The notes under the pieces were generated by a model. The model saw only the letters and a program-made list of their open reading frames with translations, searched no databases and was not told the origin of the DNA. This document shows, piece by piece, positions 1 through 31,146 of a stretch of DNA of 52,758 nt (positions are counted from its first letter, which is position 1; every line of letters starts with the position of its first letter). The stretch comes from a virus. Taxonomy: Duplodnaviria > Caudoviricetes. The stretch lies in IMG/VR virus record IMGVR_UViG_3300049165_000014, positions 1 through 52,758 of that record; one strand, given 5' to 3'. A program made the translations under genes and the position numbers.

Positions 1-285
1 GGTATGCGTAGCTCCTGCCATACCCCCAGGGGGTACCTGACCTGCGGAAACGCAGCTACTAAGCCCGCCCTAACCTGCCCCTGCCTGCCCCTGCAAACCC
101 GCTCCCACCTGCGCAAACCCGCCTCTGCAGTACCCCCCTACCCCAGCGCAGCCCAGCTCGCGCAGCACACCCCCTGCTACCTGCACAAACCTGCAAAACC
201 CCAGCTCGCATACCCCCCTCTGCAGGCCGTCCCGTACAGGACGTTCCCGGAGCAGAACGTCTGCTAGCAAACAGTTGCGCAGCGC

Positions 286-390
286 AAGTATCCGGTACGG
301 AACTATCTGCTCCAGGACGATCCGCTGGCAGATCGTTTGGGATGGGATCGTCTGCTGCGGGACGATCTCGTTTGGGACGACCTCGCCAGG
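286..390. repeat. Degenerate 15-bp-period tandem array (7 units) near the likely genome end
   Basis: Units aagtatccggtacgg, aactatctgctccag, gacgatccgctggca, gatcgtttgggatgg, gatcgtctgctgcgg, gacgatctcgtttgg, gacgacctcgccagg. Confidence 0.55.
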
Positions 391-581
391 CAAGGAACCG
401 CCTGCACGCGTACGCGCGATCCTTGTACTTGATCTTGGGGCGTGTGGCGCGCGATTCAACCAGCTCGACCTTGGTCATGTCAAGGCTTTGTGGCCCTCGT
501 CACTCAAGATCTTTTGAGCCTATTTGATCAAGCCTTTGACCTGCGGAAACGATGATGATCATGGCTCTGACCTGCGGGTTT

Positions 582-596
582 GACCTGACTTGGGGC
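582..596 (+). promoter_or_regulatory. Operator/stoperator motif
   Basis: GACCTGACTTGGGGC; consensus RACYTKACTTRGGGC is repeated genome-wide. Confidence 0.8.
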
Positions 597-690
597 CGCA
601 TGGCAAGCTTCTCCCTGTCAGCAAGCGAGCCGGACGGAAGGGAGGTCGAGGATCATGACCAGGGGTCCCCCGAAAAAATCTTGAACCAAG

Positions 691-723
691 GACTTGACTT
701 GGGGCCACCGGCCCTGGTACCTT
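691..723 (+). promoter_or_regulatory. Putative sigma70-type promoter overlapped by an operator (691-705)
   Basis: TTGACT 694-699, 18-bp spacer, TG-N-TACCTT 715-723; operator GACTTGACTTGGGGC covers the -35. Confidence 0.55.
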
Positions 724-918
724 GGTGGCAGCTCGGGAAAGGGTCCCGGACCCCAGCCGCAACGGGCGGTATGGCTCCGGCCCTCGGTAGAGCACGCGTC
801 ACCGAGATACCTGGGTGGGTTACCCCACCTGCACTACCTACACAATTCGATACCGGCCCCATGGCAGGCTGCCCGGTTACGCGGGATGTGTTTGGCCAGT
901 GGTCTCAGACCAGCCGAT

Positions 919-950
919 GACTTGACTTGGGGCCGACCATCCGGTAGGGT
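919..950 (+). promoter_or_regulatory. Major early lytic promoter (Pleft-equivalent) with operator 919-933 over the -35
   Basis: TTGACT(922-927)-N17-TAGGGT(945-950) fits the SigA/HrdB consensus and lies upstream of the whole + strand arm. Confidence 0.8.
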
Positions 951-1034
951 GGTCACCAGCACCAAACCCCCCGGGGAACGGCTCGCAAAGCGAGACGGGA
1001 TCTTTGATCGCCTCCGGTTCCAGCACTGCGGGTG

Positions 1035-1052
1035 TGTTCTTTGACAACTGAA
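1035..1052 (+). promoter_or_regulatory. rrn-type boxA-like antitermination signal
   Basis: TGTTCTTTGACAACTGAA resembles rRNA leader boxA; preceded by hairpin CTCGC-AAA-GCGAG. Confidence 0.55.
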
Positions 1053-1059
1053 AACAAAC

Positions 1060-1330
1060 GATCCCGTAGGGGATGAGCTGTCAACCGCGCCCGAGGTCCC
1101 TTGGATTAGCGGCACCGCGAGTTGCAAAGCTCTGGGGAGAAGTCTGCATAGGCTTCGCTTGCACCCTAAACCGTCAGAACCCGAGGATCCGGGGAGACTT
1201 AGGTTGGCCCAATTGGGCGTACCCGAAGCACGGAAACCACAGCCATGGTGCGCAGTGTAAGGCATCGGCGTGACATGTCCGCCAAACGATCAATCGTGTG
1301 CTGGCAAGCCATGGCTAGTGGAAATAATCA
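1060..1330 (+). ncRNA. Candidate structured leader RNA or ncRNA
   Basis: About 270 nt with no RBS-supported ORF; dense stem-loops (ATCCC-GTAG-GGGAT, GAGTT-GCAA-AGCTC, GAAGTCT-GCAT-AGGCTTC, GGCGTGACATGTCCGCC). Confidence 0.4.
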
Positions 1331-1333
1331 GGC

Positions 1334-1393
1334 TTGATGCTTGAGTCTCAGGTCAGGTGTGTCTTCATACCTGACTTGGGGCTGAGGTTTCGA
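1334..1393 (+). repeat. Intergenic hairpin, family B (contains operator 1368-1382)
   Basis: 18-bp stem AGTCTCAGGTCAGGTGTG/CATACCTGACTTGGGGCT with G:U pairs, followed by GAGGTTTCGA. Confidence 0.85.
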
Positions 1394-1410
1394 ACCTACG
1401 GAGGAATGGC

Positions 1411-1662
1411 ATGGCTGAGGTGTGGCTTGAGATCGTGGACGAGGATGGCACCGCGAGTGTCCGGCGCGTGCCGGAGGCATCGCGCGAGGCAATCGACCTC
1501 GCGATCGGGCAGGCAAGGGATGACGCCCGGGTGATGGTGAGGGATGAGGAACTGTCCGCCGACGCGCGGATCGTGGTCGGCTCGCATGAGCCTCGGTGCA
1601 AGTGCTACGACGGTCTGATCCTGGACAAGTGGTGCAAGGTCCTGGACACGGCATCCATCTGA
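1411..1662 (+). CDS. Small early hypothetical protein
   Basis: GGAGG RBS; 83-aa ORF bounded by hairpin repeats. Confidence 0.8.
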   Translation: MAEVWLEIVDEDGTASVRRVPEASREAIDLAIGQARDDARVMVRDEELSADARIVVGSHEPRCKCYDGLILDKWCKVLDTASI

Positions 1663-1712
1663 GGATTGAGGGTTGGGCAGGTCTCGCACCTGCCCTTCAC
1701 CTGAGTCACCAG
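1659..1712 (+). repeat. Intergenic hairpin, family A
   Basis: GGGCAGGT-CTCGC-ACCTGCCC core flanked by TGAG elements. Confidence 0.85.
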
Positions 1713-1720
1713 ATGGAGGT

Positions 1721-1948
1721 ATGACAATGCACGTCACGGCTTACCGTGAGATGTCAACGCAGGCATTCGACCAGCTCCCTCGCTCGGCGAGGCTTGTCAC
1801 GCAGAAGTTCGGCGTGATCATGGAACTGAGGGATGGGACCACGTCTGCGATCGGGCTGTCGGTGTTCGACGATTTCGCCACGTTCGTGGAGGCATCGGAC
1901 CTGATGCCGAACGTGGTCAAGATGATCCCGGTCAAGCTCCACGACTGA
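1721..1948 (+). CDS. Small early hypothetical protein (start may be 1727)
   Basis: GGAGGT RBS before ATG ACA ATG. Confidence 0.8.
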   Translation: MTMHVTAYREMSTQAFDQLPRSARLVTQKFGVIMELRDGTTSAIGLSVFDDFATFVEASDLMPNVVKMIPVKLHD

Positions 1949-1998
1949 GGTTTCAGTATGGGGACAGGTCTCGCACCTGTCCTCGCCTGAGGTTTCAG
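1945..1998 (+). repeat. Intergenic hairpin, family A
   Basis: GGACAGGT-CTCGC-ACCTGTCC; CTGAGGTTTCAG on both flanks. Confidence 0.85.
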
Positions 1999-2014
1999 AC
2001 ATGGGAGGCAAGAC

Positions 2015-2203
2015 ATGCACGACATCACGGAGTACGCGATCGAGGTCAACGGAGACGTGATCGATGTCGCGTTCCGGGACAAGGACAAGGCTCGGGAGTA
2101 CCGGGAGGAATGGCTGGAGTACTGCGACGATCCCGAGAACACCACGGTGACGATCGTGCACCGTCGCGTGACTTACGGAAGCTGGTTCGGCACCACTCCC
2201 TGA
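2015..2203 (+). CDS. Small acidic early protein
   Basis: GGGAGG RBS; 62 aa. Confidence 0.8.
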   Translation: MHDITEYAIEVNGDVIDVAFRDKDKAREYREEWLEYCDDPENTTVTIVHRRVTYGSWFGTTP

Positions 2204-2256
2204 GTGATCAGCGGGTGGGCTCATCTCAAGGGATGAGCCTAGCCATGGCTACTCAA
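2200..2256 (+). repeat. Intergenic long hairpin (divergent member)
   Basis: GGGCTCATCT-CAAG-GGATGAGCCT core, basal TGAGTG/TACTCA. Confidence 0.7.
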
Positions 2257-2273
2257 CCACCGGAGGAATGATC

Positions 2274-2432
2274 ATGACCGACGCACACGCTGACGCTCGC
2301 AAGGTTCGGCGCGTCAAGGGCAGCGTCAAGGCATGGAACAAGCGGCCTCGCCTGGAGGCTGAGGTTCCGCCCCACCTGGGGCAGGACCAGCCGCGCCGTC
2401 GCCCGTCGTTCTACCCGTCTCGCTCGCGCTGA
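2274..2432 (+). CDS. 52-aa basic protein (below the ORF-track cutoff)
   Basis: GGAGG RBS; MTDAHADARKVRRVKGSVKAWNKRP...SRSR. Confidence 0.7.
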   Translation: MTDAHADARKVRRVKGSVKAWNKRPRLEAEVPPHLGQDQPRRRPSFYPSRSR

Positions 2433-2484
2433 GGGTTGAGTCTCAAGTCAGGACCAAAGACCTGACTTGGGGCTGAGACTTCAG
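2429..2484 (+). repeat. Intergenic hairpin, family B (operator 2459-2473)
   Basis: AGTCTCAAGTCAGG/CCTGACTTGGGGCT 14-bp stem; basal CTGA/TCAG. Confidence 0.85.
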
Positions 2485-2502
2485 ACGAGGAAGAGGTGTG
2501 AC

Positions 2503-2598
2503 ATGCACAAGGCATCGCGCAAGTCCAAGGTTTCGATGATCGTCCGGCGATCGTCCGGACAGATCGTGTTCATCCGCAGCCAGCACAAGGGAGCATGA
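2503..2598 (+). CDS. 31-aa basic microprotein
   Basis: GAGGTG RBS; MHKASRKSKVSMIVRRSSGQIVFIRSQHKGA. Confidence 0.6.
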   Translation: MHKASRKSKVSMIVRRSSGQIVFIRSQHKGA

Positions 2599-2601
2599 GA
2601 G

Positions 2602-2850
2602 GTGTGGCGGATTCTTTCCCTCGCAGCCGCGTTCTCGCTCGCTTTCACGGCGGTGTCAGAGGTGGCGCGCATCGAAGAGGATTCACCACTGTGGAACTGC
2701 CGCACCATGGGGAACGAGGTTTGCGGTACCCCCGATGGCTTCCTGATCTACTACAGGGATGGCAAGGCATGGTCGGTGAGTACCCCTATCAACGGCCGTC
2801 CCATGTGCGGGACGGACGCGCAGTGTGAGCAGTACGCAAGCTGGGGCTGA
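2602..2850 (+). CDS. Secreted or membrane small protein with 4 Cys
   Basis: Hydrophobic signal-like N-terminus; WNCRTMGNEVCG motif. Confidence 0.7.
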   Translation: MWRILSLAAAFSLAFTAVSEVARIEEDSPLWNCRTMGNEVCGTPDGFLIYYRDGKAWSVSTPINGRPMCGTDAQCEQYASWG

Positions 2851-2917
2851 GAGGACTGGCACGGGTGCACAGGCTTGGCCTGTGCACTCCTCTGTGTTCT
2901 CAGACTTGACTTAGGGC
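2847..2917 (+). repeat. Intergenic hairpin (2847-2903) plus adjacent operator 2903-2917
   Basis: GGGTGCACAGGC-TTG-GCCTGTGCACTC, basal CTGAGA/TCTCAG; then GACTTGACTTAGGGC. Confidence 0.75.
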
Positions 2918-2932
2918 AAGAGAGGAATCGAC

Positions 2933-3316
2933 ATGACTGCTCCCCACCTGTCCGCTGAGGCTCGGCTCATCCGTCTGTCGGATGCGCTGGACGTGCCGGA
3001 CGGAGGCTTCAGCATCGACCCCCGTACCGGCGGGGATGTGAGGGTTGGCTACGCCGTGGCCACCCACCCGGAGCGTGAGCGCCGGATCGGGGGGAAGGTT
3101 TCGCCCTCGGATATCCAGGCGTTCGTGTACGACAATGCTGACCTGCTCACGCAGGAAGGCAAGATCATCGGGGGATGGCGCGACCCGCAGTCGGGTGACG
3201 CGTTCCTCGACATCAGTGAGCAGGTGCACGACCGCGAGACAGCCTTGATCCTCGGTGGTCTGCACAACCAGCTCGCTGTGTGGGACTTCGCGCGTGGAGT
3301 TTCCATCTCCGTCTGA
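2933..3316 (+). CDS. Early hypothetical protein
   Basis: GAGG RBS; 127 aa; GGFSIDP...GGW...LDIS...QLAVWD pattern seen in phage proteins. Confidence 0.85.
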   Translation: MTAPHLSAEARLIRLSDALDVPDGGFSIDPRTGGDVRVGYAVATHPERERRIGGKVSPSDIQAFVYDNADLLTQEGKIIGGWRDPQSGDAFLDISEQVHDRETALILGGLHNQLAVWDFARGVSISV

Positions 3317-3368
3317 TGCATGAGTCTCAGGTCATGTCGCAAGACATGACTTGGGGCTGAGGTTTCAG
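3313..3368 (+). repeat. Intergenic hairpin, family B (operator variant 3343-3357)
   Basis: AGTCTCAGGTCATGTC-GCAA-GACATGACTTGGGGCT, 16-bp stem with a GNRA loop. Confidence 0.85.
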
Positions 3369-3381
3369 CCATGGAGGAATC

Positions 3382-3765
3382 ATGATCGTTGAAGACACGG
3401 CATTCGCCTACTCGTACGTGATCGACCCGCACAGGGTTGAGGTGCAGGTGGAATGGGTCGGGCCGGAGTACGACTACGAATTCGGGGGATGGCGGCAGGC
3501 GTACATGCTGCACATCCGGACAGAGGCATCGCACTACACGGACAACACGCTCCGATCTGGTGTCGGCCAGGACATCAACGTGCGGAAGGCATGGGCCTCG
3601 GCCGTGTCCTTCCTCGGTGCCTGTGATGAGGCATGGAACTACGGGGGAGAGGCATCGGAGAACCGGGATCTCTTCCCTCGGTGGGTGATGGAGATCGTAA
3701 GCGATCACATCGATGAGCTGGGCATGCACGCGTACGAGATGGAAGAGGGTTCGCTGATCGCTTGA
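3382..3765 (+). CDS. Early hypothetical protein
   Basis: GGAGG RBS; 127 aa. Confidence 0.85.
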   Translation: MIVEDTAFAYSYVIDPHRVEVQVEWVGPEYDYEFGGWRQAYMLHIRTEASHYTDNTLRSGVGQDINVRKAWASAVSFLGACDEAWNYGGEASENRDLFPRWVMEIVSDHIDELGMHAYEMEEGSLIA

Positions 3766-3808
3766 GGGTTGGGCAGGTCTCGTACCTGCCCTTCACCTGA
3801 GGTATCAG
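3754..3808 (+). repeat. Intergenic hairpin, family A
   Basis: GGGCAGGT-CTCGT-ACCTGCCC...CTGAGGTATCAG. Confidence 0.85.
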
Positions 3809-3819
3809 GGAGGAAAGCC

Positions 3820-4026
3820 ATGGACCAGGAGATCATCCGCAACCTGCCCGTGTACCGCTGGACATCACAGGGTGGCGGCCTGCCATGCGAAGGCATGAAG
3901 GTTCGCAATACCAAGACAGGACGGGAAGGTGTGATCGTCGCCGGTGCTCACTGCACATACAGCGTGGTAGTGGACTACGGAATCTACTGCGTGTACACGG
4001 ACACTGGCGAATTGGAGTGGGCCTAA
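3820..4026 (+). CDS. Small SH3/KOW-like hypothetical protein
   Basis: GGAGG RBS; GMKVRNTKTGREGVIV. Confidence 0.75.
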   Translation: MDQEIIRNLPVYRWTSQGGGLPCEGMKVRNTKTGREGVIVAGAHCTYSVVVDYGIYCVYTDTGELEWA

Positions 4027-4199
4027 TGGACTGTGCCGAGGTCTATCAGTACCGAGGACGCCTTGAACGGGCGAGGGATGCGCGGATCGGGAGGCTTGAC
4101 GATCCCGCCACTGTCCAGGCGTTCGACGACAGGTTCCGTGAGTTCGTAGACGCGAGGACAAAGCATCGGGAACAGACTGGGTGCACTGACTTTCACTGA
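4026..4199 (+). CDS. Small hypothetical protein
   Basis: TAATG stop/start coupling, GGAG RBS. Confidence 0.7.
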   Translation: MDCAEVYQYRGRLERARDARIGRLDDPATVQAFDDRFREFVDARTKHREQTGCTDFH

Positions 4200-4248
4200 C
4201 ATCTGAACGAAAGGCATGTCTCGTACATGCCTTGACTTGAGGTATCAG
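4196..4248 (+). repeat. Intergenic hairpin, family A
   Basis: AGGCATGT-CTCGT-ACATGCCT...TTGAGGTATCAG. Confidence 0.85.
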
Positions 4249-4265
4249 ACATTCGGAGGCATCGC

Positions 4266-4448
4266 ATGTACCAAGTCATGGTCAAGTGGAAGAACCTGCC
4301 GCGAGCACAAAGGCTCGGGCGTGGACGCACGGTCACGCGCAAGGCAGAGGCTCGGGACTTCCGTTGCATTCTCGCAGCGGAGAACGCAGCACGACGGGAG
4401 CTTTCGCTCTCCCGACACGTAGAGGAATGGAAGGTGGTCAAGGTATGA
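4266..4448 (+). CDS. Small basic hypothetical protein
   Basis: GGAGG RBS; 60 aa. Confidence 0.75.
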   Translation: MYQVMVKWKNLPRAQRLGRGRTVTRKAEARDFRCILAAENAARRELSLSRHVEEWKVVKV

Positions 4449-4705
4449 CGGCGCCTCGATTGGAAGAGTTGGTCCTTCTCTCCCTGGCATCAGTAGAGAA
4501 GGCCAACAATCAGATGGTCGTGAATCGTGGGAGCACGATCGACATGACCCGTCCTCTCAGTGAAAGGCTTGCCGCTCGGTCGGCAGATCTGGCAGAGGCA
4601 CAGGTGTACGCCACGCTGGCACAAGCGTTGGCCAATGACACACCCAAGACAGTGCACGTGTCAGGCGGAAGGCATCACCTCAACACGCACAACACCGGGT
4701 ACTGA
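4445..4705 (+). CDS. Hypothetical protein
   Basis: ATGA overlap with the upstream gene. Confidence 0.7.
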   Translation: MTAPRLEELVLLSLASVEKANNQMVVNRGSTIDMTRPLSERLAARSADLAEAQVYATLAQALANDTPKTVHVSGGRHHLNTHNTGY

Positions 4706-4762
4706 CTGGCATCTGAGGATTGGGCACGTCACGCACGTGTCCTTTCCCTGAGACATCAGTCA
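4702..4762 (+). repeat. Intergenic hairpin, family A
   Basis: GGGCACGT-CACGC-ACGTGTCC; basal TGACTG/CAGTCA. Confidence 0.85.
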
Positions 4763-4777
4763 ACCGAAAGGGAAGGC

Positions 4778-5062
4778 ATGGACAAGTTCTGGGAGACCGT
4801 TGACGCGCAGCTCGCCGAACTGCGCTCGGCCAAGTCTGCCGATGACGTGCTACGGATCCTGTCGCTTGAGCGCAACCCGTACGGGCCAGGCTCGGCGTCG
4901 GGCGACGGGTTCTTCGCCGGAGGTGACGGGGGCGAGATGCTGGAAGCCTTGGCCGATGCGGGCTGGTCGCTGGAATGGATCGAGGCGGACTACCACTGGC
5001 GAATGAGGGCACCCAACGGAGACAAGATCAAGTACGTGGAAGGGGACATCTACCGGGGCTGA
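4778..5062 (+). CDS. Hypothetical protein
   Basis: 94 aa ending YVEGDIYRG; RBS present. Confidence 0.85.
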   Translation: MDKFWETVDAQLAELRSAKSADDVLRILSLERNPYGPGSASGDGFFAGGDGGEMLEALADAGWSLEWIEADYHWRMRAPNGDKIKYVEGDIYRG

Positions 5063-5112
5063 AGCTTGAGGATTGGGCACGTCTCGCACGTGCCCTCTCC
5101 CTGAGGTTTCGG
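5059..5112 (+). repeat. Intergenic hairpin, family A
   Basis: GGGCACGT-CTCGC-ACGTGCCC...CTGAGGTTTCGG. Confidence 0.85.
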
Positions 5113-5126
5113 ATCGGAGGTGTGCA

Positions 5127-5714
5127 ATGGGAGAGGTTTCACTGTAGGTCCGGAACATCACTCGGATCTTCCGACTCACGACCGATGACGATCGCAAGGA
5201 AGGGCAGGCATGGTATCGAGAGGCTCGGGCTGTCGCCGATAGCCTTGACCCTGCCGACCCGTCTCGCGCTGCCGCTGTGCTGGCAGTGCTGTCCCCGATG
5301 ACATCGTGGCCGCGCAACGTGAGGCTTGCGCAGGATGCGTACACGGGCAGGAAGCTTGGCTGCCTCGGCCGCAATGCGGATAAGGCTCGGCGCATCCTGG
5401 CTGGGGAGGATCCCGACACCGTGGTATCTGGCCCAAAGGTTCGGGCGTTCTGGCTGACGATCGCCGACCCCATGAACCCTGAAGCTGTGGTCCTCGACCG
5501 CCACGCCGTGGCCATCGCTGCCAACAAGATCCTCGACGATCACACCAGGCAGCGCCTGATCACAGGCAAGAGGTACGAGGCAGCGTGCGAGTTGTACCGG
5601 CGGGCTGCGCGGATCATCTCGAAAGAGATGGGAGAGGAATGGTCGCCCGCCGAGGTGCAGGCTGCGACGTGGTGCTACTGGAGGCGTGAGCGTGCTCTTG
5701 CATTTCACCGATGA
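5127..5714 (+). pseudogene. Conserved phage protein (DUF7178-like) interrupted by an in-frame TAG at 5145-5147
   Basis: GGAGGTG RBS then MGEVSL*VRNITRIF...GQAWYREA...AVLSP..SWPRN...GPKVRAF...LDRHA...EVQAATW in one frame. Confidence 0.7.
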
Positions 5715-5727
5715 CCTTACTTGGGGC
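5713..5727 (+). promoter_or_regulatory. Stoperator motif
   Basis: GACCTTACTTGGGGC overlapping the stop codon. Confidence 0.8.
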
Positions 5728-5732
5728 AGACA

Positions 5733-5819
5733 ATGAGGATCGTTTCCTGGCTGATGCTGTTCCTCGGCTCGGCCGCTGTCGTCTTGGTACTGGGAACCAT
5801 TGCGGAATTGAGGGGATGA
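5733..5819 (+). CDS. 28-aa single-TM peptide
   Basis: MRIVSWLMLFLGSAAVVLVLGTIAELRG fills the gap between genes. Confidence 0.5.
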   Translation: MRIVSWLMLFLGSAAVVLVLGTIAELRG

Positions 5820-5824
5820 GAGGA

Positions 5825-6244
5825 ATGGGTTCGTTCTACCGGGTGTCTCACCTGACCCGCCGGTCCTACGGTGGCGACTACTTCGTGGGTCCGTACTCGG
5901 GACACCACACCTGGGAAGACGGCGACGATCAGTGCGCGGTCGACGACATGGGGTACCGGCACTCGGGAAGCGATGAGCACCCGTCGCCCTTCCGGGACGC
6001 TTTCGATAGGGATGACTGGCGTAACTGGGACAACTGGGTGTGCGGGTTCGACAGCGTTGATGCGCTGAACAATTGGTTCGCAGGTTGGTTCCCGGGACTG
6101 CGTAAGTGTGGGTTCATCGTGCGTGAGTACCGGGTGGATGCATCCGACATCGTGGTGGGCAAGCAAGCCTTGGCCATCGTCGATCGGTGCAACGTGCGGG
6201 CTGTGCGTCGGCACAAGATCACTGACCAGGGCGTGTTCCTTTGA
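5825..6244 (+). CDS. Hypothetical protein
   Basis: GAGAGG RBS; YRV...GPY...HPSP..D...CGF.S...L..WF pattern. Confidence 0.8.
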   Translation: MGSFYRVSHLTRRSYGGDYFVGPYSGHHTWEDGDDQCAVDDMGYRHSGSDEHPSPFRDAFDRDDWRNWDNWVCGFDSVDALNNWFAGWFPGLRKCGFIVREYRVDASDIVVGKQALAIVDRCNVRAVRRHKITDQGVFL

Positions 6245-6302
6245 TCGGAAAGGTTTAGTCATGGGCAGGCACGGTCTGCCTTTGGCTATGCAGGTTCGAT
6301 CA
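6242..6302 (+). repeat. Intergenic long hairpin, family C
   Basis: TGATCGGA...TTCGATCA basal stem; GGGCAGGC-ACG-GTCTGCCT apical stem. Confidence 0.75.
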
Positions 6303-6317
6303 GCAGAGAGGGAAGTC

Positions 6318-6683
6318 ATGGCGAACATCGAGCGTATTGAGCAGGTTCTCAGCCAGATCACGGAGGAGAACCTGGGCATGGGTGACTGGGCGCGGAAGGC
6401 ATCGTGCGGGACCACGATGTGCTTCGCGGGCCATGCTGCTGTCCTCGCTGGGGAGAGCATTGACTGGCGCCTGTCGGAGTTCCCCGACGATCACGGAGGG
6501 GACCAGTACTGGGCGGCGCGTGTGCAGTCCGGTCGGTTCATCGACGAGGTCGCGGAGGAATGGCTGGAGCTGACGCCCTGGCAGGCACACCAGATCTTCT
6601 ACGAAGTCATCATCGGGAACGACGTGAACGCGCTGCGCCGTCACGTGCACAAGGTAGTGAGCCAGCCCGATACCGACGACTGA
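6318..6683 (+). CDS. Hypothetical protein, CGTTMCFAGHA family (paralog 1)
   Basis: RBS present; strong similarity to 7238-7741. Confidence 0.85.
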   Translation: MANIERIEQVLSQITEENLGMGDWARKASCGTTMCFAGHAAVLAGESIDWRLSEFPDDHGGDQYWAARVQSGRFIDEVAEEWLELTPWQAHQIFYEVIIGNDVNALRRHVHKVVSQPDTDD

Positions 6684-6748
6684 TCGGAAGGCTTCGTTAG
6701 TCCGTGTCCATTGAGGGGTGGACACGGGCTTTCGTGGAAGTTCGATCA
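6681..6748 (+). repeat. Intergenic long hairpin, family C
   Basis: TGATCGGA...TTCGATCA basal stem; AGTCCGTGTCCAT/GTGGACACGGGCT apical stem. Confidence 0.75.
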
Positions 6749-6767
6749 ATCAACCGGAAGGAAAGCA

Positions 6768-7154
6768 ATGACTGTGCGGATCACCGATGAGCAGTTCACC
6801 GACGCGCTCAAGGCAGTGGTGCAGGAGCGAGGCAAGGACTTCAAGTACCCCCGTGGAACGGAGGGTTGGTCGGAGAAGTATGGGAACGGGACGTACAACA
6901 CGAACTGCCTGTACGTGAGGACCGACGTGGAGGAACCGGCCTGCTTGATCGGGGCCGCCCTGCACAAGGCAGGCGTGAGCCTTGAGGAGCTGCGGGCGCA
7001 GGAAGGGCAGTCCGCCTGGGCATTCGTCGAGACGTACGGCATCTCTGGGGACAAGGCCAACGCCGCTCAGTCGGCGCAGTACGTGCAGGACGACGGCAAG
7101 ACCTGGGGTGAGGCACTCGAAACGTTCCTCAACTACAAGCCGCTCTCAGTCTGA
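6768..7154 (+). CDS. Hypothetical protein
   Basis: GGAAGG RBS; CLY...PACLIG...QD.G.TWG motif. Confidence 0.85.
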   Translation: MTVRITDEQFTDALKAVVQERGKDFKYPRGTEGWSEKYGNGTYNTNCLYVRTDVEEPACLIGAALHKAGVSLEELRAQEGQSAWAFVETYGISGDKANAAQSAQYVQDDGKTWGEALETFLNYKPLSV

Positions 7155-7237
7155 GTCGACGGACACATGGGGATGGCCGATTCGAAAGGCTCGGCCTTCA
7201 CCCATGGTCAATCGACCGGTACCCAACAACGAGAGGT

Positions 7238-7741
7238 ATGACCATGACCAATCAGGTGCTCATCTCGCAGGTGCTCGACGCCATCACGGTGGAGAACCTG
7301 GACATGGGGAGCTGGGGCAAGGCCAAGGACCCGAAGGCTTCGTGCGGTACGACCATGTGCTTCGCCGGTCACGCGGCGGTGATCGCTGGGCACGAGCTGG
7401 AGTGGGAGGAGCGGCAGGGCTACGACTACGAGGGCAACCCGACCACCTACTACGTGGCGGACTACACCAAGGAGGGACGCCTGATCGAGACCGTGGCCAA
7501 GGACGAGCTGAACATCAGCAAGGACCAGGCCACGGCCATCTTCTTCGCGACCGGCCTGGGCAACAACGTCGAGAGGCTTCGCGAGCTGGTCACCGACGTG
7601 ACCGACAACCCTGAGTTCGTCGGCAGCCGGGAGCACGGCGAGAAGTACGGGCACCTGTACGAGAGCGCCTACTTCGACTTCGACTTCCCCGACTACCAGA
7701 GCGAGTGGGTGGACGACGAGGACTTCGACGACGAGGACTGA
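7238..7741 (+). CDS. Hypothetical protein, CGTTMCFAGHA family (paralog 2), acidic tail
   Basis: GAGAGG RBS; strong GC3 bias. Confidence 0.85.
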   Translation: MTMTNQVLISQVLDAITVENLDMGSWGKAKDPKASCGTTMCFAGHAAVIAGHELEWEERQGYDYEGNPTTYYVADYTKEGRLIETVAKDELNISKDQATAIFFATGLGNNVERLRELVTDVTDNPEFVGSREHGEKYGHLYESAYFDFDFPDYQSEWVDDEDFDDED

Positions 7742-7817
7742 TCGCTGGACTTCAGTCGTGGCCAATGCGAAAGCGTTGGCTATGGCTGTGGACCAACGAT
7801 TGGAGAGGCATGAGGGC

Positions 7818-7982
7818 ATGATCCACGTGATCATCGACGGCATCCAGTTCGCTGCCATCCTGTACCTGGGACGAGCCGCCACGTCGCATCATCGTACGAT
7901 CAGTGGCATCCTGCGGGTGGAGCAGATGATGTCCGACCAGCAGAAGGAGTTCATCAAGTGGCGGAGTGGTCAGAAGGGGTAA
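7818..7982 (+). CDS. Small membrane-associated protein
   Basis: Hydrophobic N-terminus; GAGGG RBS. Confidence 0.55.
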   Translation: MIHVIIDGIQFAAILYLGRAATSHHRTISGILRVEQMMSDQQKEFIKWRSGQKG

Positions 7983-7986
7983 TGCC

Positions 7987-8208
7987 ATGGCGCTAGTGGA
8001 CCTGACCCACGAGGAGATAGCCCTGTTGATCAGGGCAGCGGACAGGTACCACGAGTTCGCGAAGAGTCACGAACAGATCCGCACATTGGACAGTGCGGTG
8101 TCCAAGATGGTGGAGGCAGATCGGAGAGCCTTGAGCGGCTCGACACAGGAAGCGCAGCGCCGGGCGCACAAGCACAGGCTAAACAACCCTCCCCCGAGCG
8201 AGAGGTAA
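7987..8208 (+). CDS. Hypothetical protein
   Basis: RBS, tightly packed in the operon. Confidence 0.7.
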   Translation: MALVDLTHEEIALLIRAADRYHEFAKSHEQIRTLDSAVSKMVEADRRALSGSTQEAQRRAHKHRLNNPPPSER

Positions 8209-9184: not shown

Positions 9185-9748
9185 ATGGCACGCGAGGTGA
9201 TCGTCCGCCTGGTCGATGACATTGACCCGAATGTCGAGGCTGACGAAACCGTTAGCTTTGGCATCGACGGGGAGAACTTCGAGATTGACCTCAGCAGTGA
9301 GCACGCGACTGCTCTCCGTGAGGCTCTCGCTACGTATGTGGCGCACGCCCGGCGGGCGAAGGTTTCGCGCCGCTCGTCGCACGGAAAGCCCTCGCCTCAG
9401 CAGGATCGGGAGCTGAACCAGAAGATCCGGGAGTGGGCACGCGAGCGAGGGGCGAAGGTCTCCGACCGAGGCCGTATCCCTCAGCCCATCGTGGACGCCT
9501 ACCACGGCCGTCCATCCAGCTTCGTCCCGACTCTCACCCCAGAGAACGAGGAGAAGGCTCGGGCTCGCGGCCTGGAGTTCGACTCGCCCAACAAGGAGCG
9601 GCTTGCTGAGAACCTGACCCAGGCTTCACAGGCACCAACGCTCACTGTCGTCCCCAGCCCGTTCGAGGTTCCCGCAGGTCAGGTCGAGGAGGCCAAGCCC
9701 AAGCGGGCCACTCGCAAGCGCGCAGGTCGTACGGCCAAGGCCGAATGA
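9185..9748 (+). CDS. lsr2: Lsr2-like DNA-bridging protein with a C-terminal extension
   Basis: LVDDID...ADETVSFGIDG..FEIDLS...IREWAR..G..VSDRGRIP. Confidence 0.92.
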   Translation: MAREVIVRLVDDIDPNVEADETVSFGIDGENFEIDLSSEHATALREALATYVAHARRAKVSRRSSHGKPSPQQDRELNQKIREWARERGAKVSDRGRIPQPIVDAYHGRPSSFVPTLTPENEEKARARGLEFDSPNKERLAENLTQASQAPTLTVVPSPFEVPAGQVEEAKPKRATRKRAGRTAKAE

Positions 9749-9891: not shown

Positions 9892-10491
9892 ATGGCTGGC
9901 ATCCCACTGCCTCGCCTTGATCTTGATCGCGCGCTCCGGGTTAGATCAGCCCAGGAGGTGCGGCCGGTGGAGGAGCGGAAGGGTGGTCCTAAGGGGTCAG
10001 GCTTGACCCCGCAGGTCATCGAGGAAGAGAAGGCTCGGGGACTCAATCAGAATCAGATCGCTGCGAAGTACGGTGTGACTCGCCAAACGGTGAGCGGAAT
10101 GAAGAGGCTTCGTGGTCGTTTCTCAATGACTCCCCGTGAGCGGGTTCTGGCACAGTTTCCGTGGAAGATCCCGGCGAGGTTCAATGATGCCGAGATCAAT
10201 CGGAACATGAGGAACCACGCCGAGTATGTAGCCACCGGCGGCAAGGGTATGTCGGATCGCAAGCTCAAGAGGCTTGCCTCCTTCTACCGCAGGCTTGAGC
10301 GTGACAACCTGGTGGTTGAGTTCGATCCAGACATCGAGCCCAACGAGTTCTCCCAACTCGGAGGGTTCAGGCTGGTACCCCGAGAGGACTCGGATGGGGA
10401 TCTGATGATCCGAGTCAACGACTGCACGGTTCTAACCGATGAGGGGCGACGTTTCCTGTGGAGGATTCCCCAGCGTCGCCCTGAAGTCTAA
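9892..10491 (+). CDS. Immunity repressor (Cluster A / L5 gp71-like)
   Basis: N-terminal HTH (NQNQIAAKYGVTRQTVS); HAEYVATGGKGMS..KL.RL..FY...VEFDP...D.MIRVN..T.LT.EG. Confidence 0.9.
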   Translation: MAGIPLPRLDLDRALRVRSAQEVRPVEERKGGPKGSGLTPQVIEEEKARGLNQNQIAAKYGVTRQTVSGMKRLRGRFSMTPRERVLAQFPWKIPARFNDAEINRNMRNHAEYVATGGKGMSDRKLKRLASFYRRLERDNLVVEFDPDIEPNEFSQLGGFRLVPREDSDGDLMIRVNDCTVLTDEGRRFLWRIPQRRPEV

Positions 10492-10663
10492 ACCCGAGAG
10501 ACCTTACTAAGGGTCCCCGTCGGGTCGCGCGTCCATAGCCGATGGTCGCTACCCCGAAATGCGCAGAGGCTAGAGCCCAGCCAGTTGGCCACCTTCCCAC
10601 CACGCTCCCTTGGGTGGTGGCTGGGCTCTGCCCTGCCCAGAAGTAGAACGGACGCACGGCACT

Positions 10664-11867: not shown

Positions 11868-11912
11868 GACCTTACTTAGGGCGGGACCAAGGTGGTCCCG
11901 CTCTTTTCTTTT
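11868..11912 (+). terminator. Stoperator (11868-11882) fused to an intrinsic terminator
   Basis: GACCTTACTTAGGGC running into GCGGGACCA-AGG-TGGTCCCGC-TCTTTTCTTTT. Confidence 0.8.
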
Positions 11913-13064: not shown

Positions 13065-13964
13065 ATGTACTCACTGGCACAGAGCAAGAGGATCCGAGGG
13101 GATAGCGGGGAGCCGCTGCCCGTCGTGTTCGAAGCCTTGGAGGCACGAGGTGTACGCCTGCTGCGTGGGCAGCTCGCTCTTGTAGCGGCTGGGCCGGGCA
13201 CCGGCAAGTCAGCCTTCGTGCTCTCGTACCTGTTGCAGGCCAAGGTTCCGACGCTGTACTTCAGCGCAGACTCTGATGCGTTCACGCAGTTGACCCGCTC
13301 TATCAGCATGCTGAAGGGCTGGCCACTGGAGAAGTCAGCGCATGCCGTGCTCGACGACGACATGGAAGCGGTGGATGCATCGCTCGCCGATGTCCCGATC
13401 CGCATGGTGTACGACGCAAGCCCCTCGCTGGACAGGATCCAGGAGGTGATGACCTCATGGTTCGAGGTCTATGAGGACTACCCCCACGTCGTGGTCATCG
13501 ACAACGTGACCAACGTGCGGAGTGGGTCGGCAGCAAACGATGACGATCCCTTCTCGGGACTGGAGTCGTTGATGGAGTACCTGCACGACATGGCACGCAA
13601 TACGCAGGCATGTGTGATCGGCCTGCACCATGTCACTGGTGGGTACAACGATGCCGACAAGCCCATCCCTTTGAGTGGGGTGAAGGGCCAGATCACTCGG
13701 GTTCCCGAGCTGGTGCTCACCTTGTTCAAGAAGTTCGACGCAATGTACAACATCACCAAGCTGTGTGTATCTGCGGTCAAGAACAGGGCGGGCAAGGCGG
13801 ATCCCTCGGGCAACACGTTCGCCGAGCTTGAGTTCATCGGCGATCAGATGACCATTCGGGATCTTCCTGATGACTACAAACCTGACTTCGGGCAAGTCGA
13901 GATCGACGACCCGTGGCAGGAAAGCGAAGACGACGATGATGAGGAGAACGATCTATGGCGGTGA
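13065..13964 (+). CDS. DnaB-like / RecA-fold helicase
   Basis: Walker A AGPGTGKS, Walker B VVVIDN, VKNR arginine finger. Confidence 0.88.
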   Translation: MYSLAQSKRIRGDSGEPLPVVFEALEARGVRLLRGQLALVAAGPGTGKSAFVLSYLLQAKVPTLYFSADSDAFTQLTRSISMLKGWPLEKSAHAVLDDDMEAVDASLADVPIRMVYDASPSLDRIQEVMTSWFEVYEDYPHVVVIDNVTNVRSGSAANDDDPFSGLESLMEYLHDMARNTQACVIGLHHVTGGYNDADKPIPLSGVKGQITRVPELVLTLFKKFDAMYNITKLCVSAVKNRAGKADPSGNTFAELEFIGDQMTIRDLPDDYKPDFGQVEIDDPWQESEDDDDEENDLWR

Positions 13965-17275: not shown

Positions 17276-18040
17276 ATGAGCAAGCGTGTATTGATTCTGC
17301 CTGACATTCAGGCACCGCTTGAGGATAGGCGAGCAGTCGCCGCTGTCATTCGGTTCCTCGGGGAGTACCAGCCCGATGAGCTGGTGCAGATCGGTGACCT
17401 GGCTGACTTCCCCAAGCCATCACGGTGGAGCAAGGGGTCTGCTGCCGAGTTCGAGGGCAACATCTTCGAGGATGCCGAGTACATCAAGAAGAGGATCCTC
17501 GACCCCATCCGTGCGGTGTATGAGGGGCCGTTCAAGTTCATCGAGGGCAACCACGATGAGCGGCCTCGGGTTCACCTGGAGCAGTACGCTCCGGCGCTCT
17601 CAGGTACCAAGGCGTTCCACATCGACAACATGCTCGACTTCGCTGGGTATGGAATCGAGTGGGCACCTGACTTCTACGACTTCGCCCCCGGCTGGACCAT
17701 GACGCATGGCCACCGTGGCGGAATCAGGCTGACGCAGGAGGCGGGCAAGACCGCGCTCGGCGCAGCCCAGAAGTTCGGCAAGAGCGTCATCATGGGACAC
17801 ACTCACCGCCTCGGGGCACAGCCGAAGTCCTTCGGGTATGACGGCCGCGTCAAGACGCTGTGGGGCGTGGAGGTCGGCAACCTCATGAACATGCGGGCTG
17901 CCCAGTACCTCAAGGGTGGCTCCGCAAACTGGCAGCAGGGTTTCGTTCTGCTGACGGTCGACGGATCGTACGTCCAGCCGACGACGATCCCGATCATCAA
18001 CAGTCGATTCACCGTGGACGGCGTTACTTTTCGCCTTTGA
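17276..18040 (+). CDS. Metallophosphoesterase
   Basis: LPDIQ, IGDL.D, EGNHD, THGH, MGHTHR. Confidence 0.9.
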   Translation: MSKRVLILPDIQAPLEDRRAVAAVIRFLGEYQPDELVQIGDLADFPKPSRWSKGSAAEFEGNIFEDAEYIKKRILDPIRAVYEGPFKFIEGNHDERPRVHLEQYAPALSGTKAFHIDNMLDFAGYGIEWAPDFYDFAPGWTMTHGHRGGIRLTQEAGKTALGAAQKFGKSVIMGHTHRLGAQPKSFGYDGRVKTLWGVEVGNLMNMRAAQYLKGGSANWQQGFVLLTVDGSYVQPTTIPIINSRFTVDGVTFRL

Positions 18041-18072
18041 ACCTGACTTGGGGCCGGGTTAGACCGGCCCCG
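18040..18072 (+). promoter_or_regulatory. Stoperator (18040-18054) fused to a hairpin
   Basis: AACCTGACTTGGGGC; GGGGCCGG-GTTAGA-CCGGCCCC. Confidence 0.75.
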
Positions 18073-18089
18073 GTCGTAGCGAGAGGACT

Positions 18090-21951: not shown

Positions 21952-21990
21952 GACCTTACTTGGGGCGGGGCTTCGGCCCCGCTCCCTTTG
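21952..21990 (+). terminator. Stoperator (21952-21966) fused to a UUCG hairpin
   Basis: GACCTTACTTGGGGC; GGGGCGGGGC-TTCG-GCCCCGCTCC-CTTT. Confidence 0.7.
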
Positions 21991-30179: not shown

Positions 30180-30231
30180 GCGGCCACCGGGACCAACCAT
30201 ACTGGCCCCGGTGACCACGGAGAGACTACCG

Positions 30232-30277
30232 GCCCCTCGGCCTTGGGAGAAATCCCAGGGTCGGGGGGTCTTTTTTG
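30232..30277 (+). terminator. Intrinsic terminator between convergent genes
   Basis: CCCTCGGCCTTGGGA-GAAA-TCCCAGGGTCGGGGG followed by a T-run. Confidence 0.85.
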
Positions 30278-30282
30278 CGTTT

Positions 30283-31146
30283 CTAGAGCCTGTCTCCCAG
30301 CGCTGCCTTTCGGTGCGCTGCTTGTGCTCTCTCGTCTGCCGCGCTAGCGGCGTACCTGTTCAGCATCTCCCGAGACTCCCAACCCATCAGGCGCATCAGG
30401 TCGGTCTCTCCGTTGCCGTCGGCCAGCCACCGATGGGCGGCCGTGTGGCGGAGCTGGTGCGGATGGATCCTGCCAAGACCTGCCTGCTTTCCCCGGCGCT
30501 CCAGCATCTGGGCCAATCCTGACGTTGTGAGCCTGCCGTAGCGCGTTAGCCATAGGTCCGGCAGTCCTGACCACGGATGAGTCTTTCGCTCCCGCAGGTA
30601 CCGTCTCACGGCCTCCGCTGTCTTCGCTCCGATCGGAACGATCCTTGGGCGCCGATTCTTCCCCATCACCAGGACGGACAAGGTCCTCATATCCACGTCT
30701 TCGGGCTTCAGCCCGAGCAACTCCGAGGCCCTGAATCCGGTGTCGATGAACATCCGGACGATCGCCTGATCTCTCTTCGCTTCGAAGGTCCTTGCTGAGC
30801 AGGCAGCCAGCAACTTCTTCAGATCCTCGTCCGGGAGGACGGGCACTGGCACCTGCGGCACCTTCGGTGGCTTCAGCTTGTCGAAGGGGTTGGAGTCAAT
30901 GATCTCCTCTTCCTTGAGCCACTTGTAGAACTGCTGCCAGGATCGGTAGTGCTGGCTGACGTACGAGGCACTCACACGTGCCGACAGCTCGGCGAGGATC
31001 TTCTTCAGGTCCCGAGCAGAGGCATCCACCTTGGGCAGCTTGCTGGCTGCCTCGGTGTAGATCTTGATCGTCCTCGGGGACTTGTTCTCTGCCTGCAAGT
31101 GGATCTTCCAGTCAGCAACCGCTTCGCCCACTGAGAGGCTCGTCAT
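30283..31146 (-). CDS. int: Tyrosine integrase (short, XerC-like; alternative start 31167)
   Basis: DTGFRASEL, MGKNRR, HPHQLRHT, MGW, RY catalytic residues. Confidence 0.92.
   Translation of the reverse strand: MTSLSVGEAVADWKIHLQAENKSPRTIKIYTEAASKLPKVDASARDLKKILAELSARVSASYVSQHYRSWQQFYKWLKEEEIIDSNPFDKLKPPKVPQVPVPVLPDEDLKKLLAACSARTFEAKRDQAIVRMFIDTGFRASELLGLKPEDVDMRTLSVLVMGKNRRPRIVPIGAKTAEAVRRYLRERKTHPWSGLPDLWLTRYGRLTTSGLAQMLERRGKQAGLGRIHPHQLRHTAAHRWLADGNGETDLMRLMGWESREMLNRYAASAADERAQAAHRKAALGDRL

Follow-up and report, generated by a model that had tools for sequence, protein, structure and literature searches.

Putative stoperators within a family of predicted intercistronic hairpins in the early operon of an L5-like phage

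Stoperators are an unusual way of silencing a prophage. We know of no study of how such short gaps between genes accommodate them along with other signals, and, to our knowledge, almost nothing is known about the post-transcriptional organization of actinophage early operons. The closest described systems are those of the Cluster A phages (e.g. L5 with its repressor gp71, Bxb1 and TipsytheTRex) and of the Cluster CA phages of Rhodococcus. In the published passages that describe them, stoperators are asymmetric sites of 13-15 bp, present in many copies that are co-oriented with transcription and lie mostly between genes or at gene ends. At the genome end some copies share bases with a promoter-like site. 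A half-site of the CTTGAC type is common to them. Repressors of this family bind the asymmetric site as monomers, and reversed sites are reported not to repress, according to passages of PMC9283540.

The window analysed here, a stretch of 52,758 nucleotides, is by its gene order the complete temperate genome of an L5-like soil phage of the L5/Cluster A type; the gene order of L5 is reproduced in its reverse complement. All coordinates below are on the plus strand unless stated otherwise. The immunity repressor gene, at 9892..10491, encodes a protein of 199 amino acids with an HTH domain and a stoperator domain. This protein matches phrog_357 (E 5.6e-54) and is ~50% identical to 1129 phage records annotated as immunity repressors, of which 876 cover at least 80% of the query. 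It also matches the solved Cluster A immunity repressor, PDB 7R6R (E 1.5e-32), across both DNA-binding domains, residues 33-194 of the query aligning with residues 34-194 of the chain. By homology, then, the product is a repressor of the L5 gp71/TipsytheTRex type, in which the HTH is N-terminal and the stoperator domain C-terminal.

An initial annotation of this DNA had assigned a motif to the repressor encoded at 9892-10491, as its operator and as a roadblock site in DNA. On its sequence properties the motif is well supported as a stoperator, the putative binding site of that protein. It is asymmetric, spans 15 bp and has the consensus GACCTGACTTGGGGC. With a matrix trained on 15 sites and a strong-site threshold of at least 16 bits, 16 strong sites were found where 0.05 were expected (20 shuffles, maximum 1); their scores range from 19 to 26 bits, the lowest being 19.1, and one weak additional site lies at 10500. 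The flanking AC at positions -3/-2 is invariant in 15/15 sites, though it was outside the search pattern. All 16 strong sites are co-oriented with transcription, 14 on the plus strand (0.6-24 kb) and two on the minus strand, in the minus-strand arm. Judged from ORF coordinates, 14 occupy non-coding DNA or the junction of two genes. Of the other two, one falls inside the portal gene, within 32 nt of its end, and one, at 13879, lies 71-85 nt inside a coding region. De novo counts of 11-mers recover the operator in seven related loci, with the CTTGAC half in common and a 7-nt half that differs each time, and these operators agree with the L5 and Cluster CA consensus sequences given in the published passages. 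The variable half found here, TTGGGGC, differs from those of all seven relatives examined. Many copies, a single orientation, placement between genes or at gene ends and a probable overlap with a promoter are the marks by which we class the motif as a stoperator. The roadblock of the initial annotation thus has homology and site statistics (copy number, orientation, intergenic placement and the half-site) behind it, and from these we infer the binding and blocking themselves.

The promoter overlap concerns the copies at 691 and 919, which probably lie on an early promoter. At 919..949 an operator copy located by the site matrix overlaps a promoter-like site (TTGACT, 17 nt, TAGGGT), which would be the counterpart of L5 Pleft; two more copies, at 582 and 691, precede it. 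The site is absent from the output of a sigma-70 scan, and a sigma-70 promoter role is possible for the copies at 691 and 919. The idea that the intergenic copies are ordinary sigma-70 promoters was rejected: a start codon stands 15 nt past the copy at 2903-2917, and there is no -10-like hexamer at the three hairpin-borne copies described below. The stoperator at 2903..2917 is itself free-standing, 14 nt past a 12-bp terminator-like hairpin at 2863-2889, so that the two lie side by side, unfused. A second repeated motif occurs elsewhere, in five exact copies.

Three strong sites are placed differently. As first annotated, the operators at 1368, 2459 and 3343 form the 3' strand of stems of 14-18 bp, and an ungapped-helix search and RNAfold agree on this. 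The first of these spacers (B1, 1330..1397) is a compound hairpin that closes the untranslated leader of ~450 nt, before the first gene (ATG at 1411). Its long stem (1344-1361 / 1366-1383) has 18 bp, four of them G:U, and a loop of 4 nt, and its predicted energy is -42.4 kcal/mol for the sense strand (z -7.78) and -17.3 for the antisense strand. The stoperator in its 3' arm, 1368..1382, scores 23.4 and carries at position -4 a T that is unique among the sites. The second spacer (B2, 2427..2486) lies between genes 2274-2432 and 2503-2598, and its basal CTGA contains the upstream stop codon. Here the stem (2439-2452 / 2461-2474) has 14 bp with two G:U pairs and a loop of 8 nt, and folds at -33.8 kcal/mol (z -5.29; antisense -21.5); its stoperator, 2459..2473, has the consensus sequence (score 26.0) and, apart from the first two bases, which are part of the loop, belongs to the 3' arm. 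The third (B3, 3311..3370), between genes 2933-3316 and 3382-3765, has a stem of 16 bp (3323-3338 / 3343-3358) with three G:U pairs and the loop GCAA, and folds at -33.2 kcal/mol (z -4.95; antisense -24.3). Its 3' arm is the stoperator 3343..3357 (score 23.4), in which the A at position -1, unique among the sites, finds its partner in a corresponding change of the 5' arm. None of the three stems has a mismatch, and 0/200 shuffles fold as well as the native sequences.

Two further statements of the initial annotation about these stems proved correct. The 5' arms do not form a second operator: on the reverse strand, the 15-mers that fit the site matrix best score 3.2, 8.4 and 5.8 bits, against 19-26 for the strong sites, and they deviate where all 15 training sites have the same base. 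And at 3343 the change from CCTG to CATG in the operator is compensated by a change from CAGG to CATG in the 5' arm. A competing pairing of the 5' arm with a downstream CTGAGG/TGAGACT, noticed by eye, was discarded; minimum-energy and centroid folds use the operator pairing instead. The three spacers are paralogues, two of them being 77% identical over 66 nt, so their shared G:U positions count as few independent events.

The hairpin belongs to a repeated intercistronic cassette and not to stoperators as such. Nine cassettes, 63-91% identical, were found: the three operator-bearing spacers (family B) and six that are operator-free (family A). The latter lie at 1655..1728, 1941..2017, 3750..3822, 4192..4268, 4702..4780 and 5055..5128, each comprising stop codon, hairpin and ribosome-binding site, and a covariance model (R1) built from these six alone scores them at 87.1, 66.6, 75.7, 67.0, 76.2 and 80.1 bits, respectively. 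The best operator score in the first is -9.6. The cassette at 4192..4268 has a 3' flank like a degenerate operator (best score 7.3, at 4229), and by sequence it looks intermediate between the two families. R1 finds all three B spacers over 74/74 model positions (B3 at 3309-3386, E 4.4e-7; B1 at 1330-1413, E 6.1e-7; B2 at 2425-2505, E 7.3e-6), and no other plus-strand match with E < 0.1 in 52.8 kb. Reverse-strand matches of up to 26.9 bits occur at the same cassette loci, as expected for near-palindromes, and R1 by itself therefore does not establish the strand.

The cassettes are placed with precision. Each starts at the upstream stop codon and stops short of the next ribosome-binding site, the TCAG of its 3' base ending 3-15 nt ahead of that site. 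In 8/9 the stop codon is inside the CTGA or TTGA of the 5' base; B1 is without an upstream gene. The small ORFs on either side carry Shine-Dalgarno motifs, and their GC content at third positions is 0.74-0.85. Stop-to-start hairpin spacers of this kind, in three sequence families, would number at least 14 from 1.3 to 7.8 kb. It is because they are located in this repeated spacer, found between most early genes, that three operator copies form one strand of a predicted mRNA hairpin.

The pairing is conserved across the family. In an alignment of the nine copies, 95.3% of 170 cells are paired, and in 7/19 pairs both partners have changed. Covariation scores 0.363; shuffles give 0.201 (0/500 reach 0.363), and sliding the partners gives no more than 0.104. 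The alignment was fitted to the model structure, and six of its nine rows had trained R1. The copies are, moreover, paralogues within one metagenomic genome, and their shared ancestry inflates the covariation counts. The signal also favours one strand. In B1-B3 the fold of the sense strand is stronger than that of the antisense strand by 9-25 kcal/mol, against a background difference of -1.2 to -1.7 kcal/mol; a difference of -20 kcal/mol or below is reached by 0/9318 70-nt windows outside the cassette region, and B1 stands at -25.3. The sliding 70-nt scan served only as this background, since it is too noisy in a GC-rich genome to define hairpins alone. In the stems of the nine-copy alignment, 21 cells are of the G:U type and two of the A.C type. 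Strand asymmetry, compensated changes and a covarying family of nine thus argue for the RNA-level structure of the initial annotation, and we propose that the hairpin is selected in the sense RNA. They do not bear out a single element built for two purposes.

The reading that we consider probable is of a hairpin cassette acting at the RNA level, three of whose nine copies also hold a DNA-level roadblock site of an L5-type stoperator system. The analysis itself provides a family of sites, a homology for the repressor, a predicted fold that covaries and favours one strand, and the homology between A and B spacers; repressor binding, the roadblock and the hairpin function are what we infer from these. 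In a stronger reading, the joining of operator to hairpin would be adaptive as such, and the 5' arm would have been tuned with G:U pairs so as to keep the stem yet avoid a reverse operator. The nine non-Watson-Crick pairs in the three long stems are indeed all G:U; wobbles stand opposite operator positions 7 and 9 in 3/3 copies and opposite position 4 in 2/3, positions that are invariant in 15/15 sites; and the reverse-strand scores fall accordingly. Reversed sites are also absent among the 16 strong sites here and the 22 of L5. However, G:U pairs are just as typical of the six operator-free cassettes (13 cells), so the motive of avoiding an operator is unneeded and was not upheld; a reversed site is, in passages of PMC9283540, reported as inactive, not harmful; and the wobble positions, common to three paralogues, may be a single inherited state. 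Nor are the two elements regularly joined. The hairpin occurs without the operator in 6/9 cassettes and the operator without the hairpin at 13/16 sites, hairpin 2863-2889 and operator 2903-2917 merely adjoin in one spacer, and the operator forms the 3' arm of a sense-strand hairpin at 3/16 strong sites here against 0/96 sites in the seven related loci, all 96 being without it. Both layers of the element first described are supported, but not their purpose-built fusion, which we regard as unlikely. The joint form of this reading, in which stop-to-start spacers would clamp the stop codon beside the next ribosome-binding site, with a roadblock written into three of the 3' strands and the 5' strand G:U-tuned against an operator on the other strand, is likewise doubtful.

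Could the hairpins instead be terminators or attenuators, which stop or pause RNA polymerase between early genes, with the operator as a second stop? The stems are strong, GC-rich and directly after stop codons, and operators meet terminator-like hairpins elsewhere: the operators at 11868 and 18040 contribute their last five bases to the 5' arm of such a hairpin, and at 21952 one starts right after the operator. Against this, the stem is followed by a U tract in none of the nine cassettes (the sequences there read GAGG...), and the one plus-strand terminator that a scan of 1-6000 reports is 2863-2889, with none of the cassettes among its results. Nine full stops within 4 kb of one operon would, besides, silence the genes downstream. 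We give this explanation little credence.

Recombination modules or selfish repeats are a second option: cassettes that spread or shuffle small early genes, as PeSLs of T4-like phages are proposed to do, the hairpin having no RNA function of its own. Nine similar copies between small ORFs, 7/10 of which are without a PHROG family, fit this picture, as do stoperator-to-stoperator deletions reported in L5 relatives (in passages of PMC5712189) and PeSL-mediated shuffling (described in PMC4122927). It leaves unexplained, however, the compensated pairing, the confinement of wobbles to the sense strand and the exact stop-codon-to-ribosome-binding-site placement of every copy, and no cassette copy was found in any other genome searched; we judge it improbable. 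A DNA-level palindrome, whose arms bind a dimeric protein or two repressors while the RNA fold is incidental, is highly improbable: the two arms come close to being inverted repeats, family A shows conservation in its 5-nt loop (CTCGC, CTCGT or CACGC), which would also fit a protein reading the element, possibly as DNA, and the five copies of the second motif suggest further DNA-binding factors, but a duplex-DNA site should be strand-symmetric, and the excess of G.T-type over A.C-type cells and the large sense-over-antisense energy gap count against it, as do stems that covary (with three pair types at one position of the family A alignment) and keep no fixed half-site, and a repressor family that binds its asymmetric site as a monomer (passages of PMC9283540).

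To return to the cassette that carries a roadblock site in some of its copies, its mechanism might run as follows. A repressor monomer would bind the asymmetric 15-bp site, shut the early promoter at the genome end and block elongating RNA polymerase at ~13 further co-oriented stoperators. The promoter-proximal part of the early operon (1.3-5.2 kb, with other sequence families to 7.8 kb) would use the repeated intercistronic hairpin cassette, and in three of nine cassettes the 3' arm would have taken on the operator sequence, the 5' arm following, partly by way of G:U pairs. In the lysogen the operator would be read as duplex DNA by the repressor and, the 3' arm being untranscribed, no hairpin would form there; in lytic growth the same 15 nt would be read as one strand of an mRNA hairpin. 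As to the job of the hairpin, our guess is a protective 3' stem-loop for the upstream cistron, or a processing site in the polycistronic early RNA. With no U tract after the stems and no match in an Rfam 15 search of 1-7000 (both strands, up to E = 1), this role is a guess among several.

On the G:U-tuned reading, the genome would hold a natural overlapping code, in which lysogens use one 15-nt word as duplex DNA and lytic growth uses it as RNA structure. A stoperator would here share its bases with an RNA hairpin that is apparently under selection. The wobble pairs provide a genetic handle: changing an operator G that is paired to U into A would kill the operator and keep the stem, and changes in the 5' arm can break the stem and leave the operator intact. 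Nearly every early spacer is a stop-to-ribosome-binding-site hairpin, which points to a systematic post-transcriptional organization of the early operon and may matter more than the overlap with stoperators.

Relatives of the cassettes were sought in several collections. Megablast and blastn, with 1-8000 and 1-4000 as queries, found nothing in 50,697 phage records; the exact B-hairpin pattern had 0 matches in viral contigs, and the operator with its flank 0 in metagenome contigs. The family A core pattern hit six loci in viral contigs, all of them unrelated coding DNA without the flanks, and these were set aside. R1 had 0 matches up to E = 1 in the seven related loci (145,694 bases). The repressor protein, for its part, has five relatives in viral contigs (49-52% identity), one in genome contigs (metagenome-assembled, 51%) and none in metagenome contigs. 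Among sequencing runs, a single soil-metagenome DNA run contains the stretch and may be the source of the window; no RNA run is listed for it. A stoperator inside a hairpin is not mentioned in passages of PMC6550527, PMC9283540, PMC5712189, PMC13313380 and PMC3203893, and the words hairpin and stem-loop are absent from PMC6550527 and PMC9283540. A literature search on mycobacteriophage intergenic stem-loops and RNase III returned only unrelated papers.

Among known systems, the Cluster A and CA stoperators are the nearest to the DNA-level signal, their repressor being homologous across both DNA-binding domains. For the hairpins, the ESAS elements of Cluster K come to mind: as described in passages of PMC3203893, these are imperfect inverted repeats of ~17 bp with a spacer of 4-13 bp, located just upstream of non-structural gene starts, and like the cassettes they have a single orientation and no known function. 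The arm sequences differ, however, the cassettes begin at the upstream stop codon and three of them carry a repressor site; and the 13-bp SAS motif is absent from the window, which has one match with two mismatches where 1.45 are expected. The PeSL cassettes of T4-like phages are also short, composite stem-loop repeats between small, variable early genes (PMC4122927; cf. PMC2839356), and both they and the present cassettes could be recombination points. A PeSL combines a terminator with an early promoter, whereas the cassettes here are without a T tail and without an internal promoter-like site, the only matches of a sigma-70-type scan of 1-6000 being 1301-1328 and 1794-1821, neither of them inside a cassette. 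The DNA-level signal in these cassettes, unlike that of PeSLs, is a repressor site. More distant parallels exist in enterobacteria, where REP hairpins (REP/BIME) are both protectors of mRNA 3' ends and protein-bound DNA sites, and in T7, whose early RNA is cut by RNase III at long, imperfect intercistronic hairpins. To REP/BIME and the T7 sites the cassettes have no sequence relation; the resemblance is one of idea only and, in the case of REP/BIME, the idea is the same: one repeat, read in both DNA and RNA.

In three spacers between the small early genes, B1 (1330..1397), B2 (2427..2486) and B3 (3311..3370), the operator, a 15-nt putative binding site (stoperator) for the repressor encoded at 9892-10491, doubles as the 3' arm of a hairpin. 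Helix searches and folding agree on this arrangement. The stems are ungapped and free of mismatches: 18 bp with four G:U pairs in B1 (operator at 1368), 14 bp with two in B2 (2459), and 16 bp with three in B3 (3343). Whole elements, short outer helices included, comprise 22-26 pairs. The sense strands of B1, B2 and B3 fold at -42.4, -33.8 and -33.2 kcal/mol (z = -7.78, -5.29 and -4.95; 0/200 shuffles as good in each case), and the antisense strands at -17.3, -21.5 and -24.3 kcal/mol. In the genome background, the sense strand is the more stable by only 1.2-1.7 kcal/mol, and a sense-antisense gap of 20 kcal/mol is reached by none of 9318 70-nt windows elsewhere in the genome; the gap in B1 is 25. 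The 5' arms pair through G:U and create no second operator on the other strand. Their reverse complements score 3.2, 8.4 and 5.8 bits on the site matrix (1368, 2459 and 3343, respectively), and mismatch the operator at positions 4, 7 and 9, which do not vary among real sites. At 3343, the operator change CCTG to CATG is offset by a change in the 5' arm, and so is the T in position -4 of the site at 1368 (G.U there versus C-G in the 3343 copy). The loops have nothing in common. Because the stems, the G:U pairs, the lack of a second operator in the 5' arm and the compensation all hold, the initial annotation, which had described these features from the sequence alone, was accurate.

The virus record is complete (52,758 bp; G+C 61.5%), and its gene order is that of L5, reverse-complemented. 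Plus-strand genes from ~1.4 to 30 kb include those for the repressor, a RecB-like exonuclease, a DnaB-like helicase, ribonucleotide reductase and DNA polymerase A; minus-strand genes from 30.3 kb to the end include those for integrase, lysin, tail proteins and portal, the last 52-57% identical to portals of Mycobacterium phages, L5 among them. The first 8 kb of the window have no DNA-level match among phage records, and among sequencing runs only one, of soil-metagenome DNA, contains the stretch. Between the converging arms, adjoining the integrase gene, a strong hairpin with a T run (30200-30285; -44.4 kcal/mol) looks like a terminator closing the plus-strand arm. The left end (1-400) carries C-rich direct repeats (family D12), and repeated GGGACGATC-like units form a strong hairpin at 315-400 (-41.5 versus -30.9 kcal/mol).

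A 199-aa protein is encoded at 9892-10491. It matches phrog_357, ‘transcriptional repressor’ (E = 5.6e-54), and, at ~50% identity, 1129 phage records annotated as immunity repressor, from Mycobacterium Cluster A, Rhodococcus and Gordonia phages. Its match to the TipsytheTRex immunity repressor (PDB 7R6R; E = 1.5e-32) spans residues 33-194, and takes in the HTH as well as the stoperator domain. The motif first noticed was lengthened to 15 nt, with consensus GACCTGACTTGGGGC; AC at -3/-2, although outside the search pattern, is invariant in 15 of 15 sites. In a matrix scan, 16 sites reached 16 bits or more where 0.05 were expected, the lowest scoring 19.1 bits; a further, weak site lies at 10500. 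All 16 strong sites are oriented with transcription. The non-coding left end holds three operator copies, of which two contain TTGACT at the position of a -35 element; in the copy at 919, TTGACT is followed, 17 nt on, by TAGGGT, and we infer a promoter there. De novo 11-mer counts recovered the operators in L5 and in six further related loci: all have CTTGAC, followed by a 7-nt half that differs from locus to locus; these agree with the consensus sequences published for L5 and Cluster CA phages. Together, the site statistics, the repressor homology and this pattern in relatives identify the motif, at the level of sequence, as a stoperator whose specificity half is new. Repressors of the Cluster A type are described as monomers acting on asymmetric sites, and reversed stoperator sites as giving no repression (PMC9283540). 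All four of the defining features examined are present, and site and repressor belong, by homology, to the Cluster A stoperator system, the binding itself being predicted. The stoperator at 5713 (5712-5736) shares bases with the TGA that ends the upstream gene, and its GGGG run, 6-7 nt ahead of the following ATG, occupies the expected place of a ribosome-binding site. A different sequence, TGACCTGCGG, occurs in five exact copies, three in the non-coding left end (38-47, 537-546 and 568-577, plus strand) and two, on the opposite strand, to either side of where the repressor gene starts (9672-9681 and 10009-10018); a search tolerating one mismatch gave 13 matches versus 7.0 expected. It may be a second regulatory site.

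Long hairpins occur in all 11 spacers of the small early genes between 1.3 and 5.2 kb, the sense strand being the more stable by 2.7-23.9 kcal/mol. In eight of nine cassettes, a CTGA or TTGA forming part of the 5' base includes the stop codon of the preceding gene; the exception, B1, is preceded by none. From the end of the 3' base (TCAG) it is 3-15 nt to a Shine-Dalgarno motif, with the start codon beyond, and the flanking ORFs have a third-position GC of 0.74-0.85. A covariance model trained solely on the six operator-free spacers (family A: 1655..1728, 1941..2017, 3750..3822, 4192..4268, 4702..4780 and 5055..5128) matches the three operator-bearing ones (family B) at full length (E = 4.4e-7, 6.1e-7 and 7.3e-6), with no further plus-strand match below E = 0.1 in the window. 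The operator ACCTGACTTGGGGC falls in the same columns as ACCTGCCCTTCACC of family A, and the two kinds of cassette are positionally homologous. The hairpin covaries and is biased to the sense strand. In the nine-copy alignment, whose rows are paralogues, six of which trained the model, and which was fitted to the structure, 95.3% of 170 cells are paired, both sides have changed in seven of 19 pairs, and the covariation score is 0.363, versus 0.201 in shuffles (0/500) and at most 0.104 with slid partners. G:U-type cells number 21, versus two of A.C type. All cassette and hairpin evidence comes from one genome. One family A copy, at 4192-4268, looks like an intermediate form linking the two families: its 3' flank, GCCTTGACTTGAGGT, resembles the operator (7.3 bits), and could be a decayed or nascent stoperator. 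A third family, of other sequence and the same design, lies at 6230-6320, 6675-6775 and 7730-7815 (sense/antisense -39.7/-19.9, -42.2/-29.8 and -41.6/-23.3 kcal/mol). Its stems are long and wobble-rich, with a base (TGATCG...CGATCA) that holds the stop codon and is followed by a ribosome-binding site; the matrix scan found no operator-like site of at least 8 bits in these spacers.

The hairpin is not characteristic of stoperators. Of 14 sites in the window that differ from the seed at no more than one position, only three (1368, 2459 and 3343) have an upstream pairing partner, as do none of 96 stoperator sites in seven related loci (L5, 22; four Rhodococcus-phage-like loci, three of them close mutual kin, 13, 14, 14 and 10; a metagenomic locus, 12; Idleandcovert, 11). 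No printed statement of stoperators within hairpins was found in the stoperator papers searched. A second kind of operator-hairpin contact occurs at operon boundaries: at 11868-11905 and 18040-18075, a stoperator reaches, with its last five bases, into the 5' arm of a hairpin that resembles a terminator, the former with a T-rich tail behind it, and at 21952-21990 a hairpin starts immediately 3' of a stoperator.

The record carries a family of stoperator-type sites together with its own putative repressor gene. In a lysogen, repressor bound to the duplex operator would halt polymerase ahead of the 3' arm, so that no hairpin would form; without repressor, the spacer would be transcribed and would then fold. 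Since the hairpin would arise only when repressor is absent, the DNA and RNA readings would be separated in time, and need not interact. Intercistronic hairpins in the early RNAs of other phages have protective or processing roles, and our preferred reading is that the cassette gives each cistron a 3' stem-loop for protection or processing. The next candidate is translational coupling or insulation, because in the stem the stop codon comes to lie next to the ribosome-binding site that follows it. The initial annotation had gone further, proposing a dual DNA/RNA code; of this, the stoperator family and the sense-biased hairpin are supported. In its strong form, wobble would have been chosen so as to avoid a reverse operator. 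This is possible but not needed, because wobble is just as frequent in the operator-free cassettes, and in one spacer hairpin and operator simply lie side by side (2863-2889 and 2903-2917).

B1 sits at the 3' end of a ~450-nt untranslated leader (960-1410) that runs from the promoter-like site at 919-949 to the first gene. In L5, an abundant non-coding RNA arises from Pleft, its 3' end unexplained in the account cited (PMC5712189), and B1 could mark the end of a counterpart of that RNA. Immediately upstream of B1, at 1301-1328, is a sigma-70-like match (CTGGCA, 16 nt, AATAAT; 9/12); two such matches were found in 1-6000 versus 1.3 expected, and this one may therefore be due to chance.

Among known elements, the cassette was rejected as a terminator, the terminator scan finding no T tail after the cassette stems, and as a member of an Rfam family, no cassette having a match. 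It was rejected, too, as a Cluster K SAS/ESAS element and as a PeSL; it is similar to the ESAS of Cluster K in form, and to PeSLs in placement.
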